Shown: one piece after another, positions 8,771-58,898 of the stretch
How the letters are laid out: the number at the start of each line of letters is the position of its first letter
Position numbering within the stretch: position 1 is the first letter of the stretch
Origin: a virus
Virus record (IMG/VR): IMGVR_UViG_3300006076_000001
Span: 29,787-93,786 of that record
Direction: 5' to 3' (one strand)
Length of the DNA stretch: 64,000 nt
Program-made: the position numbers and the translations under genes
The notes under the pieces: generated by a model
Database searches by the model: none
What the model saw: only the letters and a program-made list of their open reading frames with translations
What the model was told of the DNA's origin: nothing

Positions 8771-9214
8771 TTAATTTATTTCCCCGTCATCATCTATAAT
8801 GACATACTTTTTATTTCCAAAAAGGTTAGTATCCTCATCTTTTGATTTAGGTTTAGCTGGAGCAACTTTTAATTGTTCTTTCTTTTTTATATAAGTTTTA
8901 AGTAGAACACAATACCCTACTAAATCATTTATCGTATCTACTATCGTCTCATCGCTAACATTTATCTCTTCGCTTTTTGTTATAGATGCAAGTCTGGATA
9001 GTTTATCACCCATTCTACTAATAATAACTGATTCAACTGGAATGTCTAATAAGTCTGCAGATAGTTTAAAGTTTTTAAAAGTGTCTTCTTTACCAGAATA
9101 ATCTCTACCTTTTCTAACCAAAGTGTCCTTTAATTCAGAAAATGTTTTGTCTAATGTTTCAATCACTTCTTCTTGTGTAGCAAATACATTGTGATGAATT
9201 TTTCTTCTTTTCAT
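8771..9214 (-). CDS. DUF1599-like nucleotide-modification-associated all-alpha NTP pyrophosphohydrolase (putative)
   Basis: RKGRDYS...NF, RMGDKLSRL, DETIVDTINDLVGY motifs; likely start ATG 9214 after AAGGAG. Confidence 0.65.
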   Translation of the reverse strand: MKRRKIHHNVFATQEEVIETLDKTFSELKDTLVRKGRDYSGKEDTFKNFKLSADLLDIPVESVIISRMGDKLSRLASITKSEEINVSDETIVDTINDLVGYCVLLKTYIKKKEQLKVAPAKPKSKDEDTNLFGNKKYVIIDDDGEIN

Positions 9215-9273
9215 TTGTTTTTCTCCTTTCATTATTTATGCCTTGTTTTTATAAGGTTATTTAGATTTTATGA

Positions 9274-17673: not shown

Positions 17674-17832
17674 TCACAAAAATAAATTAATTATTGCTAT
17701 TATGATTGCACCAATCCCTAATAATAAAAAATGAGGAAAATTATTGAATCTAGGTATATCCGATTTTGTAAAGAAAGCCATCACAAAGAAAAAGACGGAT
17801 AAAAATATTAAACCTATCGTTGCATTATTCAT
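17674..17832 (-). CDS. Small two-TM membrane protein (52 aa, below ORF-track cutoff)
   Basis: MNNATIGLIFLSVFFFVMAFF...FLLLGIGAIIIAIINLFL; ATGA overlap with the dUTPase stop. Confidence 0.6.
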   Translation of the reverse strand: MNNATIGLIFLSVFFFVMAFFTKSDIPRFNNFPHFLLLGIGAIIIAIINLFL

Positions 17833-18275
17833 TTTCCAGTACTCCCAAATCCATTATGTCCTCTATCAGACCAAACAGGTAATTCGTCTACTTCCTCTAA
17901 TTCTGTATGAATCATAGGGACTGGAATAAGCACTCCCTGAGCTATTTTATCCCCTACTTCAATTTTTGGTGGTTTTCCAGAGCCTAAATACCATAATAAA
18001 AATGTTACCTCCCCTTGATAACCAGAATCAATAACACTATGAAACACGGCTATGTGTTTATTAAAAAGCATACTACTTCTTGGAGCTGTAGATAGATAAT
18101 AACCCATCGGAACTTCTACTGCTACATCTGTCCTAGCAATTGCAAACCATAAATTGTTATCATTTTTAATCCATTCTAATGGTCGTGATAATTTAAAATC
18201 AATCCCTGCATCTGTAACTCTTGACTTAACTGGACTAAACGCTTTATCTGATAATTTTTTAAATTTAATTTTCAT
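17829..18275 (-). CDS. dut: Trimeric dUTPase
   Basis: All five motifs: AGID, PRSS, VIDSGYQGE, GDKIAQ, RG..GFGSTG. Confidence 0.93.
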   Translation of the reverse strand: MKIKFKKLSDKAFSPVKSRVTDAGIDFKLSRPLEWIKNDNNLWFAIARTDVAVEVPMGYYLSTAPRSSMLFNKHIAVFHSVIDSGYQGEVTFLLWYLGSGKPPKIEVGDKIAQGVLIPVPMIHTELEEVDELPVWSDRGHNGFGSTGK

Positions 18276-37824: not shown

Positions 37825-38343
37825 TTATTTATTATTCTTTAATATTTTAGTCTCAAAAAGTGGTATAAAAGTTTCAGTTAGTTTTGGCATCTTTTTTATT
37901 AAAAGTTTAAGGTTTTTTGAAAATAAAGGTCTTGCTGGTATATATTTAGTCCCATACTCAAGGAAATCAATAATATCTGATGCCTTAACTTTTTTATTTT
38001 TATATTTAATATATTTTGGGATACCAACATACCAATGTCTGTATTTCCATACTCTAAATAAAGACATAAGTGTTCCCGTGTTTATCCAAAAATCCTTACG
38101 ATGTTTAGGATTTTTTCTTTTTTTGTATTTGGGAGATAAGGGTTTATATAATAGCTTCATAGGAGTATTACCTATTTTCTGAGTTTGTATAGACTTTTTA
38201 ATCATATTTAAATATACATTAGCAATAAAATGAGAGTAGTGATATAAGACGAAGTCTAAATCCAGATTTTTATCTTTTGCATACTGTTCCAATCGAACAA
38301 ATTGTTTTGAATGGAGGAGAAGAGAGGTTATATCAATTTTCAT
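37825..38343 (-). CDS. Neck/tail-completion (virion morphogenesis) protein
   Basis: PLSPKY..RK, INTGTL, LEYGT..IPARP motifs. Confidence 0.7.
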   Translation of the reverse strand: MKIDITSLLLHSKQFVRLEQYAKDKNLDLDFVLYHYSHFIANVYLNMIKKSIQTQKIGNTPMKLLYKPLSPKYKKRKNPKHRKDFWINTGTLMSLFRVWKYRHWYVGIPKYIKYKNKKVKASDIIDFLEYGTKYIPARPLFSKNLKLLIKKMPKLTETFIPLFETKILKNNK

Positions 38344-39020: not shown

Positions 39021-40391
39021 CTAAATGTAATAAACATCTAAAATGTCTTTACCAAATTGAGCTAATGCAAATCTATAATTAGAATCTTTTAAGCTATCAT
39101 CAGGGACATTCTTTCTGAATGCTTTACCAAAAATGATTTCTACACTATCCTTAAATTTTAAAAATTCAGGGTCGTTAGGATTTTTAAACCCTTTATAATT
39201 AAGAAATGTCATAGATAAAATGTTAAATCCAGTAGTCATAACTGCCCTATTTAACAATATAGCACTAACTACATCATTTTTTGGTTTTGCTATTCTTCTT
39301 GGTAATTTAGTTAAAGTAGTAAGTTCCAATAAATCTGGAACAGGGACTCCCAAATTATCTGCTATTTCTCTCCAAGATACTTCTCTTTCATCTGGCATAA
39401 ATGCTCCAGATGTACCTACATAACCCTCAATAATATCTACCACAATAAAATCATCGAAACCATATGGTGTAACTGGTTTTTTATTTTCCATTATTTCATA
39501 GGCAATTGAATTAACATCGCTATAGGTTAAACCTACTTCAGATGGGGTAACTATTTTCTCTTCTCCTGTATTTTTATCCATTATTAAAAGTTTAACTTTA
39601 TCCATTGAATTATTAACAAATCTATTAGACACTCTAATAGGATAAACTCTCAAATTACCGATTGAGTTACCCATATAAAATTGATTTAAACCAATATCAG
39701 ACATCGCTTGTAATGGGTTTATGTTTCTAAAAGTTGATTTTCTTCTTTCTGGAGAATAATCGATAGACAACATATACCCCTGAGGCATTTCATAAAGTGC
39801 TATTTCTCCTCTATCTAAATGTTCTTTTATCATCTCTGTAAATTCAGGATAATCCACCACTGTAGCAAACTCTTCAATCTCTGGTCTGTCTCCAGCCCAT
39901 TTATAACATTTGTCCCTACTAATTTTATCATAAAATCCAGCTGATTGACCTGATGAAGTAGAGCCTAAATGAGTAACTCCTCCGTCCATCCATTTGCCAC
40001 AATTTGCTTTTTGATTTTCTCTAATTTTATGCTCTTCTTCTACTACAAATGCCCTTGCCGAAACAATTATCTTATCTTTAGGTAATTTACACCATTCAAT
40101 TTCTTTTCTAAGTTGTTCTATTTCAAACCCTGCTGACGGAGCAATAAAAACAATTGGTTCATACCCTAATAAATCATATCTATTTAAAGCTGATGCAACT
40201 GGTAACACTTTAAACACAAAAGTTTCTCCAAATCCAGTAAATGTATGAGAAGCTGAATTTGCCGAATTACTTATTAATACTTTTGGTCTTTCTCTTAATG
40301 CAATAGCTGATGCTATTTGACCTTTACCACTACTACCCGCTCCTATATCAAATAGGAAATTTACTTTTCCTGACTTTAATACACCTTGCAT
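39021..40391 (-). CDS. purZ: PurZ-type adenylosuccinate synthetase paralogue (2-aminoadenine pathway)
   Basis: P-loop GSSGKG (Ser where PurA has GDEGKG), SHT, GST, QG..LS, R.YPIRV, ELTTLTKLPRRI, TFLNY instead of PurA TKLD. Confidence 0.8.
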   Translation of the reverse strand: MQGVLKSGKVNFLFDIGAGSSGKGQIASAIALRERPKVLISNSANSASHTFTGFGETFVFKVLPVASALNRYDLLGYEPIVFIAPSAGFEIEQLRKEIEWCKLPKDKIIVSARAFVVEEEHKIRENQKANCGKWMDGGVTHLGSTSSGQSAGFYDKISRDKCYKWAGDRPEIEEFATVVDYPEFTEMIKEHLDRGEIALYEMPQGYMLSIDYSPERRKSTFRNINPLQAMSDIGLNQFYMGNSIGNLRVYPIRVSNRFVNNSMDKVKLLIMDKNTGEEKIVTPSEVGLTYSDVNSIAYEIMENKKPVTPYGFDDFIVVDIIEGYVGTSGAFMPDEREVSWREIADNLGVPVPDLLELTTLTKLPRRIAKPKNDVVSAILLNRAVMTTGFNILSMTFLNYKGFKNPNDPEFLKFKDSVEIIFGKAFRKNVPDDSLKDSNYRFALAQFGKDILDVYYI

Positions 40392-41577
40392 TAGTTGTCT
40401 CCTTTCTTAGTTGGAATAAATTCAGAACAGAAATCCATTTCTGGATTTACTTCTTTATTTAGTAAAGAACACCACTTTCTTGAATATTCTGTAACAAGGC
40501 ATTCGCAATTTCTACATTTAATCAAAGCATCATCTGCCATAAATTTAAGTAAGTCTTCTAACATTGTTATTTCTTTAGCAAACATTTCTTTATTTTCATT
40601 ATCTATATTAGGGTCATTCAGTGCCTGACTATAGGTATGAATTAATCTTTCTACATCTGAAATTGTATATTGCATTTTAATCCTCCTTTTTCAATTCAGC
40701 GTTTGTTAGTTTATCTTTAATCATTTCTAATAATTCAAATCTATAAGCTTTATTATCTGACTCTGCCATCTGATATAGCATCTGTAATAATTCATCATCT
40801 ATTCCAGCCGCAAATTTAACTCTATGTACCAATGATTTAAAAATATTATTTTTTGCCATTTCTTCTATATCAAAATCAACTAAACCCCTCTCATAATCAT
40901 TAATAATGATATCTGACTCAAAAATTAATTTACCAGTTATTTTGGTAGCAAATTGGTCTTTTAACTTTTCTTTCTCCCATTCTACTGTAAATAATCTATC
41001 TTTATTCATTGTTTAATCTCCTTTACACTCTTAAATCAATTTGATTAATTCTTTCTCTTAATTCTTTAAGAGTTTTAGGCACACCATTATCTTGTGACCC
41101 TTTATTGTTATCAGAAGATACCTCTTCTTGGCTTTTTCTGATATCTTTCTTGCATTCTGTTACATTATCACCTATATTAGTAGCTGAGATATCCTCTGAA
41201 TTAAAAGAAGACACTTCTTTAATCCATCTCTCTGTATGTTTATCTAAATCAACTTTGTTACATTTTTTCCTCATTTTATCAAACTCACTTAGGTATAAGT
41301 GTTCCAACTCCTGATAATAAAAGATTATTTTATCTCTCTTTTCTAATTCTGAAAGAAGATAATTGACTTGTCTTTGCAACTCTTTATTTTTATCCTCTAC
41401 AAAATTTATCCAATCAAATTGTTTAAATTCAGATATATCAGCAAAAGGGATATTTAAAGATTTAAGCCAATTCAATTTGTCTCTTAATTGTTTATTTTCT
41501 AATTCGAGTAGTTCAATTTTGCTCTCTAATTTATCTTCGTTACACTTACTGAAAAGTTTTGAGAAAAAAGAAAACAT
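40391..41577 (-). CDS. Three hypothetical proteins (40391-40675, 40677-41009, 41023-41577)
   Basis: ORFs with SD; 41023-41577 carries the 83-bp element in frame. Confidence 0.55.
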
Positions 41578-41633
41578 CTTCTGACTCCTTTCTGATTTAA
41601 GTCACATTTTTATAATGTGATAATTTGAAATTT

Positions 41634-42638
41634 TTAACTTTTGCAAACAGACGGGCATTTTTTACAACAATCTTCAATTTCTTTTTTGTATTCATTAATT
41701 ACTTTTTTAAGTGATTCCTTTCTTGCCTCTTCATATTTAGGTGAAACCTTTTTACCCTTAATTTTTGGATTTTTAATAGAATACTTAATGTCTTTATCCA
41801 CTTTCGATAAATATTTTTTAACTTCTAATCTGAAAATGTCATTAACTAATCCCCATTCGTTATCTTTAGGTTTGCATCGTTTCTTCCCATCTTTAATAAC
41901 AGCACAAATGGCTCTCTTCCATAATGTTACTAAATAGCTCTCTGGTATATTGTATTTTTTAGAATAACCTTTAACCAAAGTTGAATTAGTCTTTAAGGCT
42001 TGTAAATGTATCATTTATATTACCTCCTCTTATTTAAAATGGTAGTTGTTCTTCCTCTTCGTCTTTTAAAATTAAATCTGGTATATATGTAACCACAATA
42101 CTCTTTTTCTTTATCTCATAAGAATAAATTATTTTGTAACCTTTTTGTCTTAATTTGGTAATACTATCTTCCATAGATTTAGAGTATTTATAATCTGCCG
42201 AAAAAATTATGGTATTAGGTTTAACACCAACCTTAGTGATATAAGAACGAAACTTAGATTTAAGAATGTTAGAAAGAGAAAAAGATTTAGTAGAAACTTC
42301 CAAAGACATTAAAAAATGTCTCCGATATTAATATTATTTTCTATTTCCCTAATTTCACTATCACTAATTACCTCAGGAAATTTAGATAAGATTACAAAGT
42401 TGTATTTATCTCCCTTTTTATAAATATAGAAATTATACTTATTATTAGTGATAACTGGTAATTTATTAATCAAACTTCTATAAAGAACTTCATTAAATGA
42501 TTTTTTAAACACTAAGTATAATTTATCTTTATCTTCATAAGCTACAACAAAGTATCTATACAATGGTGGAATCACTTGTTTTATTTTAACTCCGTAATTA
42601 AACATAGAACTACCAAAAGCTAACCTTATTTTTGCCAT
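41634..42638 (-). CDS. Three small proteins (41634-42014 MIHLQA leader; 42034-42309; 42309-42638 MAKIRLAF leader)
   Basis: ORFs in operon orientation; two carry shared leaders. Confidence 0.55.
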
Positions 42639-42657: not shown

Positions 42658-43248
42658 TTATTTATCGAATCTTGTCAAAACTTTAAACTCATTAAAAAGT
42701 TTTCTCAAATATAGAGATGTATTAAATTCAAATACCGCTTTTACATCTTTATTCCAAAAATGTATTGGTTTCACAGTAACAAACTCCTCTTCATAACATT
42801 TTCTTAATACCTCTGGATTATCATCAATAATAATTGACGGATATAATAACCATTTTTCCCTCATAGTTATCATATGAGTGTCATCTATAAATTTTGGAAA
42901 ATGTTTTCTTAATGATTTGATTTTACCATAATAAGTATCTCTATTTGGAACAACAATGTGTGTAACAAATCTAAATTCAAAATCGTCCCAAAAGTCATTT
43001 ATTACTTCAACCATACCCTCATAAGGCTTCATATTCTCAAAAAAGTCTTCATTTAAGTATTTATATCTCTCTTCCTCTGATAATCCAAAAATTTCGTGAA
43101 AATGATACTTAGAACATTGATTTTCTGTAACTGAAATTTTTTCTCCTGTAGCTTTAAAATAAGCCTCCTCAAAAGCACTTATATAATCAAAAATCGTTGA
43201 ATCCATATCTACATAAATCAATGGCTTACCATTAATAATCTTTATCAT
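42658..43248 (-). CDS. 5'(3')-deoxyribonucleotidase (NT5C-type HAD)
   Basis: YVDMDSTIFD, FFENMKPY, K.L....IIDDNP, WN. Confidence 0.85.
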   Translation of the reverse strand: MIKIINGKPLIYVDMDSTIFDYISAFEEAYFKATGEKISVTENQCSKYHFHEIFGLSEEERYKYLNEDFFENMKPYEGMVEVINDFWDDFEFRFVTHIVVPNRDTYYGKIKSLRKHFPKFIDDTHMITMREKWLLYPSIIIDDNPEVLRKCYEEEFVTVKPIHFWNKDVKAVFEFNTSLYLRKLFNEFKVLTRFDK

Positions 43249-57138: not shown

Positions 57139-58215
57139 ATTTTAGAAATTTTGATGGTATACCTAATTTAACCCTACCATTTAAAACTTTAAAAAATTTA
57201 TCACCTAACTCTGGGTCTAACATAGGAACTACACTAGCTAATTTAGCGAATTCATCTTTATTTAATACAACTTTTTTTACTGTGTTATTTTCTGTTAATT
57301 CATCGATTACTTTTCTTAATTGATAAAGGTTAATTTCTTCACTGTCTATTGGATTTATACCAAAATCTTTTGCATCTTTAACAAATCTTTTATAATAAGC
57401 ACCGATTCTATAACCTTGTCTAGTTAGGTCTATAAACCATCTAACTAATGCTGGGGCATTTTCATATAATGCAACTTTTTCTTTAACTGATTTAGTTTCT
57501 GCTATTTTATAAATGTAATCAATCACATCTCTTAAGTCTGAAACTGATATTATCATATCTTTTAAATTAGCATCTATTTCAGAAGACACTTCTCTTTGGC
57601 TTTCTTGTATATTTTCTTTGTTTTCTACAACATTATTAGCTATATTAGTAGCTGAAGTATCTTTTTGTGCTTCTTCTTGGCTTCTTTCATAAGCTTCAAT
57701 TGCATCTAAAGCTACTGATTTAGAAATTCTTTTACCATCAACATAAAAATGAGTTCCTTTATCATTCATTCTGATTTCTTTTTCTGATTTCTTTTTCTTA
57801 TTTTTTTAATATTTAATTTTTTATTATCTCTTTTTCTTATCTCAAACTTTTATAGGAAAGGGGGTCGAAATTTTTAATATTTATGTTAAGAAACTCTTTG
57901 AGAATGGAAGAAGATAATTTTCGGAGTAACACCTTTGAAGAAGAAAGCTTTACAAGTCTTACCCTTTTTATGAGTACAGATTTTAATTGTCTTTTTAGGG
58001 TCATACTCCACTGCCATAGAGTATAAATAGTCCATTTTGTTATTTTTAGAATGAGTTTCGCCTCTCTGAGTAGCTACCTTATACTGAAAAACAGAATCGA
58101 GGTCATTAGAAAAATAAGGGGTGCGATTAGAAGAAAGAGTAGGAAAAATACCTTTTTTGTATAACTCTCTTTCTTCTTTATTACCCAATCTGTAAATAGT
58201 CTCTCTTACTTTCAT
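57137..58215 (-). CDS. Two hypothetical proteins (57137-57769 containing the 83-bp element; 57886-58215)
   Basis: ORF track. Confidence 0.5.
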
Positions 58216-58898
58216 TTTTTACAAACCTTATCAATAGTAGTAATTACTTTATATCTATCACTCAATTGAGCTTTAACTAATTGGGTGAACTCCACAGTAG
58301 AACTTGAAACTAAGTCATCTTTATTATCTAAATACCATTTAAAAATGAAATGATTATCCTCTTCATCGCCCCACATTTTTTGGTATCTACCCTCTTTGTA
58401 TCCATTATCTTTTCTAAAACTATTTAAAGTCTTTTTAACCAAATAAAGAGAATATAAATCTATTATGTTATCAACTCCTGCCAACTTAGTTAATTTTACC
58501 AATGCCTCATAATTTATCATTTCAGCTAAAGATGAATGTAAAAATACATCTACAACAAGATATCTAACATTAGCCTCAAAAGAGTCTTTTTCTAATTGTA
58601 AAGGGTTATTAAAAAATAAATTAATTCTATCAAAAATCACATTTCTGGTTATTTCTGGGTGATAAGCTAATGAAGAAAGGAAGAAATGCCACGCATCTAT
58701 TATTTCAATTAAAAAATTAATTTTATCCTCTTTACCTTTAGCCCACCATTTATGATTGATTGATTCCATTGCCTCCATTAACTCTGCCATTATTTCAGCA
58801 TACCAATCTTTAATGGTTAAAGACTCTTTCCAATTAGGCAATAACTTATCATTCAATTCATATTGCTCTTTAAACATTTCTTCTAATAAATATGTCAT
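58212..58898 (-). CDS. Dimeric all-alpha dUTPase (Campylobacter type)
   Basis: Q.ELN, ELMEAMES..HKWW, EIIDAWHF, LN.FRKDNGYKEG.Y.K.W..EEDN. Confidence 0.88.
   Translation of the reverse strand: MTYLLEEMFKEQYELNDKLLPNWKESLTIKDWYAEIMAELMEAMESINHKWWAKGKEDKINFLIEIIDAWHFFLSSLAYHPEITRNVIFDRINLFFNNPLQLEKDSFEANVRYLVVDVFLHSSLAEMINYEALVKLTKLAGVDNIIDLYSLYLVKKTLNSFRKDNGYKEGRYQKMWGDEEDNHFIFKWYLDNKDDLVSSSTVEFTQLVKAQLSDRYKVITTIDKVCKK

Follow-up and report, generated by a model that had tools for sequence, protein, structure and literature searches.

A PurZ-type gene of a deep, previously uncharacterised clade in the genome of an uncultured AT-rich phage

The window analysed here is a 64,000-nucleotide stretch of virus DNA, positions 29787-93786 of IMG/VR virus record IMGVR_UViG_3300006076_000001 (record length 93,786 bp), and it carries on its minus strand, at 39021..40391, a gene for a 456-residue protein of the adenylosuccinate-synthetase family. 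The family includes PurA and PurZ, the second of which, also named DgsS or succino-amino-deoxyadenylate synthase (NCBIfam NF038379), initiates synthesis of 2-aminoadenine (Z), a base of DNA. Judged from its sequence and tree position, the protein groups with PurZ, not PurA, and belongs to a new deep, previously uncharacterised clade of the PurZ family, here called clade A. It probably has the dGMP-dependent chemistry of a PurZ-type enzyme, and we favour, at a probability of about 0.55, the reading in which it feeds Z into the DNA of the phage; Z in this DNA is plausible but unproven. The record, which has a GC content of 28.8% (A+T ~71%) and ends in 99-bp direct terminal repeats (DTR), is the complete 93.8-kb genome of an uncultured AT-rich phage.

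Motifs and placement in the PurZ family

The open reading frame (ORF) begins with an ATG, which has one base in common with the stop codon of the ORF upstream and is preceded by AAGGAG, and its frame is intact. An earlier, sequence-only reading of the window had recognised the gene by the motifs GSSGKG, SHT and TFLNY, and we confirm it at exactly these coordinates on the minus strand. The P-loop, A18-G-S20-S-G-K-G24 (40320..40340; this and the following motifs are all on the minus strand), has Ser20 in place of the catalytic Asp13 of PurA. The catalytic His and triphosphate contacts are found in S48-H49-T50 (40242..40250), and the aspartate loop L357-TTLTKLPRR-366 (39294..39323) is conserved with the TTVTK..R loop of PurZ. 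The phosphate-donor base motif T395-F396-L-N398-Y399 (39195..39209) aligns with N-F295-C-N297-Y298 of phiVC8 PurZ, NFAQY of S-2L PurZ and T-K-L-D-V of E. coli; it is ATP-type, like that of the ATP-using PurZ enzymes, and has neither the K-L-D of PurA (T-K-L-D-V) nor the A-D-Q of PurZ0 (S-F/M-A-D-Q). The canonical marks of PurA, a G-D-E-G-K-G P-loop and an (S/T)-K-L-D guanine motif, do not occur in the protein. The sequence-only reading had taken the change of Asp to Ser and of Asp to Asn as the mark of PurZ, and the literature agrees (PMC12884076 sec. 24; PMC8342488 sec. 7; bioRxiv 10.1101/2025.10.22.683976 sec. 8); PurZ0 retains the donor-motif Asp, which the present protein does not. This motif set is not due to chance, because the protein matches Pfam PF00709 (Adenylsucc_synt) at 30.5 bits against a cut-off of 27, albeit over its N-terminal third only, matches PHROG 1211 ('2-aminooxy adenylosuccinate synthetase') at 5e-17, and has homologues that reach E = 1e-217.

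Motifs, best PDB, NCBIfam and PHROG matches, predicted fold and phylogeny all bear out the proposal that the enzyme is PurZ-like rather than PurA-like. A sequence search of the PDB returns phiVC8 PurZ (2e-14), S-2L PurZ (2.5e-12) and Pyrococcus PurA (6.6e-10), with bacterial PurA barely detected, and among NCBIfam models the PurZ model NF038379 ranks first at 102.1 bits and the archaeal short-PurA model NF003295 second at 67 bits. The AlphaFold2 model, built with 36 homologues as input, has a mean predicted local distance difference test (pLDDT) of 92.5 and a predicted template-modelling (TM) score of 0.91. Its top Foldseek matches are S-2L PurZ with dGMP/dATP and phiVC8 PurZ (TM 0.82-0.86 on the target), followed by Pyrococcus horikoshii PurA and then PurZ0. 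The protein shares its compact fold with this archaeal short PurA (PDB 2D7U/5K7X; TM 0.86-0.87 on the target), an enzyme that uses IMP/GTP according to its PDB title and scores well below PurZ against the present protein. A profile made from clade A only gives PurZ 148-173 bits, PurZ0 57-72 bits and bacterial PurA 46-59 bits.

Exhaustive searching with HMMER gave 600 relatives at E <= 0.001. Of the best 150 representatives, all those with the N-terminus retained read G-S in the P-loop and none has Asp, and Ser20 is invariant in the homologue alignment. About 30 long homologues in large protein collections (425-470 residues, 37-75% identity) include some on contigs of 94-126 kb. Matches in cultured phages come from 60 records, and among those listed all but the best are from phages of 38-48 kb, including phiVC8, S-2L, PMBT28 and ZP6 and phages of Vibrio, Acinetobacter, Alteromonas, Klebsiella and Salmonella hosts, in which the gene is annotated as an adenylosuccinate or 2-aminooxy-adenylosuccinate (PurZ) synthetase and the match covers residues ~10-258 only. 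The best is Flavobacterium phage MaF61 (168 kb), which matches over 87% of the length with 30.6% identity (2e-36).

Two trees were built, one with FastTree from 157 rows and one with IQ-TREE (LG+C20) from 66 rows, the latter rooted on four bacterial PurA, its only outgroup, and including three PurZ0 sequences, from Ghobes, Archimedes and Preamble. Both recover a single clade of Ser-type proteins (support 100), with PurZ0 at its base. Its crown clade (99) contains the characterised PurZ subclade (99), clade B with MaF61 (100), a clade C of short forms, and clade A (99; 28 rows of the larger tree), the long metagenomic proteins that include the present one and that carry an insertion of ~70 residues where a loop gates the deoxyribose. 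Thus, in the phylogeny with PurA, PurZ and PurZ0 that the sequence-only reading had called for, the protein lies inside the Ser-type clade and crown-ward of PurZ0, and this position means that it is bracketed by two groups experimentally found to use dGMP and is a member of neither. The whole context of clade A seen here is viral, consisting of the 93.8-kb DTR record and two further contigs, L015 and L016.

The closest characterised comparisons are phiVC8 PurZ (PDB 6FM1/6FKO/6TNH) and S-2L PurZ (7ODX), which share with the present protein the fold, the Ser in place of Asp13, the catalytic His, the TT(V/L)TK..R aspartate loop, the equivalent of V241 and the ATP-type F/N/Y donor pocket. They differ from it in sequence, with ~28-29% identity over the N-terminal half only, in falling in a separate clade, and in size (343-359 residues against 456, owing to an insertion of ~70 residues and a longer C-terminal region in the present protein). 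The gene also differs from theirs in its surroundings, with no adjoining datZ or mazZ and no DpoZ or PrimPol context. PurZ0, known from the Gordonia phages Archimedes (PDB 7VF6) and Ghobes and from Arthrobacter phages, has a Ser-type P-loop as well; however, it reads G-S-E-A-K where the present protein has G-S-S-G-K, its donor motif, of the GTP type, keeps Asp where the present one reads F-L-N-Y, it branches basally, and it scores no better than bacterial PurA on the clade A profile. MaF61 ORF141 ('putative adenosuccinate synthetase', PQ858689) is the only cultured-phage protein that matches over >80% of the length; it is likewise a long form with a Ser-type P-loop and an insertion at the same loop, and its donor motif is NFVNY. 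Unlike the present protein it belongs to clade B rather than A, the two insertion sequences cannot be aligned, and its gene sits among structural and ribonucleotide reductase (RNR) genes of a large phage without a Z cluster. In the paper describing MaF61 we found no base-composition or DNA-modification data.

Two further features of the family were seen among the homologues. Many large PurZ-like proteins of 750-1200 residues (P0039, P0053, P0064, P0074, P0090, P0110, P0166 and P0177) contain insertions of LAGLIDADG homing endonucleases; in most of them intein splicing domains can be recognised, and one has two such insertions; P0039 is a clade A relative with 56% identity. We had considered these proteins as informative Rosetta-stone fusions and rejected them as such, their length being due to intein/LAGLIDADG insertions, and the frequency of inteins in the family fits an important gene. 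In addition, structural neighbours in Atlas clusters include bacterial proteins of adenylosuccinate-synthetase fold fused to NUDIX or AAA-kinase domains, which may be cellular PurZ-like defence cassettes.

The nucleotide pockets and the 70-residue insertion

We mapped the ligand contacts of S-2L PurZ (PMC8342488 sec. 7-8) onto an L-INS-i alignment. The dGMP pocket is conserved at G19, S20, A47, T145, Q204 and V254, as are the further dGMP contacts G143, S144, R159, T220 and R253, the triphosphate contacts H49 and T50, the aspartate loop TTLTKL..R, and the adenine pocket F396, N398 and G447. V254, R253, Q204 and T145, together with the aspartate loop, are invariant in the alignment. Of the residues that line the 2-amino group in phiVC8 (F12, S14 and T262), the Ser (S20) and the Thr (T358) are kept and F12 is replaced by A18, at a position that varies among F, Y, W and A throughout the Ser-type clade. 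Among the positions associated with dZ, S14, T262, F295, Y298, W252 and P233 are kept and P144 and Y244 are not; W252 and P233 are the residues most associated with dZ contigs (bioRxiv 10.1101/2025.10.22.683976 sec. 8).

The insertion of ~70 residues (about residues 256-325; 39417..39626, minus strand) is confidently modelled as a small alpha/beta module and follows directly on R253-V254, the kept Arg and the Val by C2'. In S-2L PurZ a 9-residue insertion, A242-W250, pushes this Val toward C2' and disfavours ribonucleotides (PMC8342488 sec. 8).

A proposed route to Z, its candidate helpers and the rival explanations

By homology, we propose that the protein is an active N6-succino-2-amino-2'-deoxyadenylate synthetase of a deep clade, which would phosphorylate the O6 of dGMP with ATP or dATP and then displace the phosphate with aspartate to give dSMP (N6-succino-2-amino-2'-deoxyadenylate). 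Host adenylosuccinate lyase and host kinases would convert dSMP to dZTP (PurB was not found in a Pfam scan of 126 ORFs of the genome), and the phage's own split family-A polymerase would place Z opposite T. Because no recognisable DatZ, MazZ or DpoZ is present, the exclusion of adenine, if there is any, would need other enzymes, for which we suggest an NT5C-family protein encoded upstream and one of two dUTPase-type enzymes; replacement of A by Z could also be partial. In other Z phages, unrelated enzymes stand in for DatZ and MazZ (PMC12884076).

The NT5C-family 5'(3')-deoxyribonucleotidase (42658..43248, minus strand; Pfam 4.5e-14, HAD motif DMDST) lies 2.3 kb upstream of the PurZ-type gene in the same direction, has no match in the cultured-phage collection, and is a candidate dAMP-removing helper by inference only. 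A trimeric dUTPase (17829..18275, minus strand) has the five canonical Dut motifs, a sequence that cannot separate Dut from DutZ, and a dimeric all-alpha dUTPase_2 (58212..58898, minus strand) has as its nearest solved structure the C. jejuni dUTPase 1W2Y, which aligns from end to end. In having Dut-family enzymes and no HD or MazG protein found, the phage resembles the PurZ0 phages, whose genomes carry Dut-family enzymes rather than HD/MazG helpers (PMC12884076); unlike them, it has no NDT/DmtZ that we could find. Across 25 viral contigs compared, NT5C and trimeric Dut accompany clade A in 3/3 contigs and dimeric dUTPase in 2/3, with HD or MazG in 0/3; an HD protein is present in 6/10 contigs with a classic PurZ and in neither of the clade A contigs G006 and G007. 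This co-occurrence is not independent evidence of a functional linkage, since the clade A contigs are related and one of them, L015, is syntenic with the window over primase, NT5C, small ORFs and the PurZ-type gene.

The sequence-only reading had listed the NT5C protein at 42658 and two dUTPase folds as possible helpers, and these identifications stand, with the dUTPases at 17829 and 58212; its label of pyrophosphohydrolase for the ORF at 8771 is not supported. That ORF (8771..9232, minus strand) encodes a four-helix, DUF1599-like protein whose match is weak (21 bits, cut-off 25). It has only four homologues in 5.8 billion proteins, and its acidic C-terminal tail, IIDDDGEI, is strictly conserved. 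Considered as a MazZ analogue, it has no sequence match in the PDB, a weak AlphaFold2 model (pLDDT 65.5) and only generic helical matches (best Z = 8).

Several observations weigh against the proposal that Z enters the phage DNA, and we gather them here. Clades A, B and C are known from sequence alone, and clade A stands apart from the characterised PurZ subclade of phiVC8, S-2L and PMBT28, each with support of 99. The 102.1 bits scored against NF038379 compare with a cut-off of 300 and with 397.2 for the phiVC8 control, so that the plain assignment to PurZ made by the sequence-only reading is weakened on both counts. The insertion of ~70 residues lies at the sugar-gating loop, at the same spot as the 9-residue insertion of S-2L PurZ, and the pocket carries the substitutions Y21/F12->A18, N49->S46, Y203->K218 and P336->K448, besides C204->S219 and G51->S48. 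The search for datZ and mazZ that had been proposed for the rest of the genome gave nothing recognisable as DatZ, MazZ, DUF550, NDT or DpoZ: in six frames of the whole record, HD (PF01966, DatZ), MazG (PF03819), DUF550 (PF04447) and NDT (the DmtZ family) had no match at E <= 5. The absence of an HD-domain DatZ that had been remarked on for the window thus holds for the whole genome. The PolA exonuclease/thumb fragment matches no Z-phage (DpoZ) polymerase, its best matches being Dp-1, SP-10 and Refuge at ~25% identity.

A further contrary observation, and an unexpected one, is a purge of restriction sites. With expectations for palindromes taken from a maximal-order Markov model over the whole genome (window 1-64000 plus L002/L003), GATC occurs once where 284 are expected, CATG four times (240 expected) and ACGT not at all (45 expected), and the longer sites GTYRAC (1 observed, 36 expected), GTTAAC (0 and 23.5) and GAATTC (5 and 20) are reduced too. 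CCGG, GGCC, GGNCC and CCNGG are absent against expectations of 36, 35, 44 and 42, and GCGC occurs once against 10; CTAG and GTAC are depleted to observed-to-expected ratios of 0.23 and 0.27, and the counts of AATT, TTAA, TGCA, AGCT and GANTC are as expected. No palindrome avoidance is seen in fifty classic PurZ loci (847 kb), and in two clade A relatives GGCC alone is avoided. Since these relatives lack the purge, it is specific to this lineage and arose with the PurZ-type gene already present. Evidently, host enzymes still select against A-containing sites, including GAATTC and GTTAAC with their four A/T positions, and the purge implies that the host has many type II restriction systems, a trait by which it might be identified. 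The benefit of restriction evasion that the sequence-only reading had attached to Z is weakened accordingly in the counts for GATC, CATG, GTTAAC and GAATTC. The purge lowers the odds of complete A-to-Z substitution and weighs against full protection of A-containing sites; we put substitution of the whole genome at roughly even odds or somewhat less. It is nevertheless compatible with Z, because dZ-DNA is cut by ~47% of type II enzymes, the block by dZ extending to only about half of them (PMC12944874).

One alternative is that dSMP and dZMP are made, but that the DNA in the virions is normal A-DNA or carries no more than a light substitution, with protection from restriction provided by the loss of sites. 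The pathway would then serve pool management or another end, for example draining dGMP from degraded host DNA in a phage of 29% GC. This would accord with the extreme, lineage-specific purge of A-containing sites, with our finding no dATP-clearing enzyme of any known type, and with the S-adenosylmethionine (S-AdoMet) lyase and non-specific endonuclease of the phage, which suggest other strategies of anti-restriction or host-DNA recycling. We consider it unlikely, though deserving of attention, given that the phages with a Ser-type PurZ tested so far all have Z genomes (PMC12884076, PMC8342488), that, with dZTP available, the polymerases of E. coli do not discriminate against incorporating Z (PMC8342488 discussion), and that site avoidance and Z can coexist when dZ blocks about half of type II enzymes (PMC12944874). 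A different objection concerns the chemistry itself: the substrate or product of clade A may have shifted, to GMP, IMP, dIMP or another amino-acid donor, and the enzyme would then provide an auxiliary purine supply or a different purine modification. A18, S46 and K218, an insertion placed precisely where PurZ has its ribose-excluding loop (PMC8342488 sec. 8), a score under the cut-off of the PurZ model and the high dATP demand of a 71% A+T genome can all be cited for such a shift. We nonetheless judge it improbable, as the protein has Ser at the Asp13 position, where reversal abolishes selectivity (bioRxiv 10.1101/2025.10.22.683976 sec. 8), V254, R253, Q204, T145 and the aspartate loop are invariant, and A18 is found in many other Ser-type sequences, so that position 12 may simply be variable.

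Some bacteria have PurZ-like proteins with a fused NUDIX or kinase domain, and a further idea is that the gene has become a relic, or acts as a counter-defence decoy akin to bacterial PurZ-like defence cassettes, with no role in the composition of phage DNA. This is very improbable in view of the intact 456-residue frame with all catalytic residues present, the conservation of the gene in related phages, where it occurs at 44-75% identity within syntenic replication modules, and the viral context seen for clade A throughout.

The reading in which the enzyme feeds Z into phage DNA can be extended to the clade as a whole. Clade A would then be a third functional PurZ lineage, found in AT-rich tailed phages of ~94-126 kb whose genomes contain Z, with NT5C and a Dut-type or dimeric dUTPase-type enzyme replacing DatZ, MazZ and DpoZ. 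We hold this to be possible but doubtful. Within such a lineage the 70-residue insertion would be a new regulatory or oligomerisation module, and ~71% of base pairs in the present genome would become triple-bonded Z:T.

PurZ homologues are predicted in >2000 viruses (PMC13128860 introduction). Z genomes shown by experiment belong to phages of Pseudomonadota, Cyanobacteriota and Actinomycetota that have recognisable helper genes and are small (~38-48 kb in the ones seen here). If the clade A enzymes are true PurZs, Z-DNA extends to large, very AT-rich phages that exclude adenine differently, which would add to the functional convergence that PMC12884076 describes. What is new here is a distinct clade with a distinct architecture, the finding of no canonical helper genes, and an informative conflict with restriction-site avoidance: with a PurZ-type gene and one of the strongest computable restriction-site purges, the genome is a natural test of protection by Z. 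The PurZ-type gene lends itself to expression and assay, and MaF61 offers a cultured proxy for the neighbouring long-form clade.

The genome, neighbouring genes and host

All 126 of the retained ORFs lie on the minus strand, and the genome has no tRNA genes. We scanned these ORFs (all those of >=55 residues, in four batches that included the PurZ-type ORF) against Pfam. Nucleotide metabolism is represented by RNR alpha and beta subunits, ThyX, dCMP deaminase, the trimeric dUTPase, the dimeric dUTPase_2 and NT5C, and replication by a family-A polymerase in pieces and by RecA-like, clamp-loader, helicase and primase genes; the weak DUF1599 match completes this inventory. The scan also identified an S-AdoMet lyase and a DNA/RNA non-specific endonuclease; S-AdoMet lyase is an anti-restriction function of the T3 type.

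The PurZ-type gene is translationally coupled, through the one-base overlap, to a Cys-rich ORF of 94 residues without an assigned function (40391..40675, minus strand). It is the last of six small ORFs of unassigned function that lie between NT5C and the PurZ-type gene (40391-42638, minus strand). Another of the six, at 42034-42309, and the ORF at 37825-38343 are kept beside the PurZ-type gene in contig L015.

The genome encodes an Rz1-like LysC and a GH108 lysin, the first of which suggests that the host is Gram-negative. In both the PDB and NCBIfam the C. jejuni enzyme is nearest to the dimeric dUTPase, whose Atlas neighbours are mostly Pseudomonadota. For the Campylobacterota host suggested by the sequence-only reading, support is limited to low GC and this C. 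jejuni-like dUTPase, and a thermophilic host, which it had also entertained, finds no supporting evidence. On the whole, that reading is supported in part. The structural proteins match distant phages only. A baseplate-wedge-like protein (L002:3930-5567, minus strand; genome 3927-5567) shares 34% identity, across 97% of its length, with proteins from YerA41, vB_Yru_GN1 and Carin-5, and the Yersinia phages YerA41 and vB_Yru_GN1 (145 kb) and the Cobetia phage Carin-5 are the sole cultured phages with a clear structural link to this genome.

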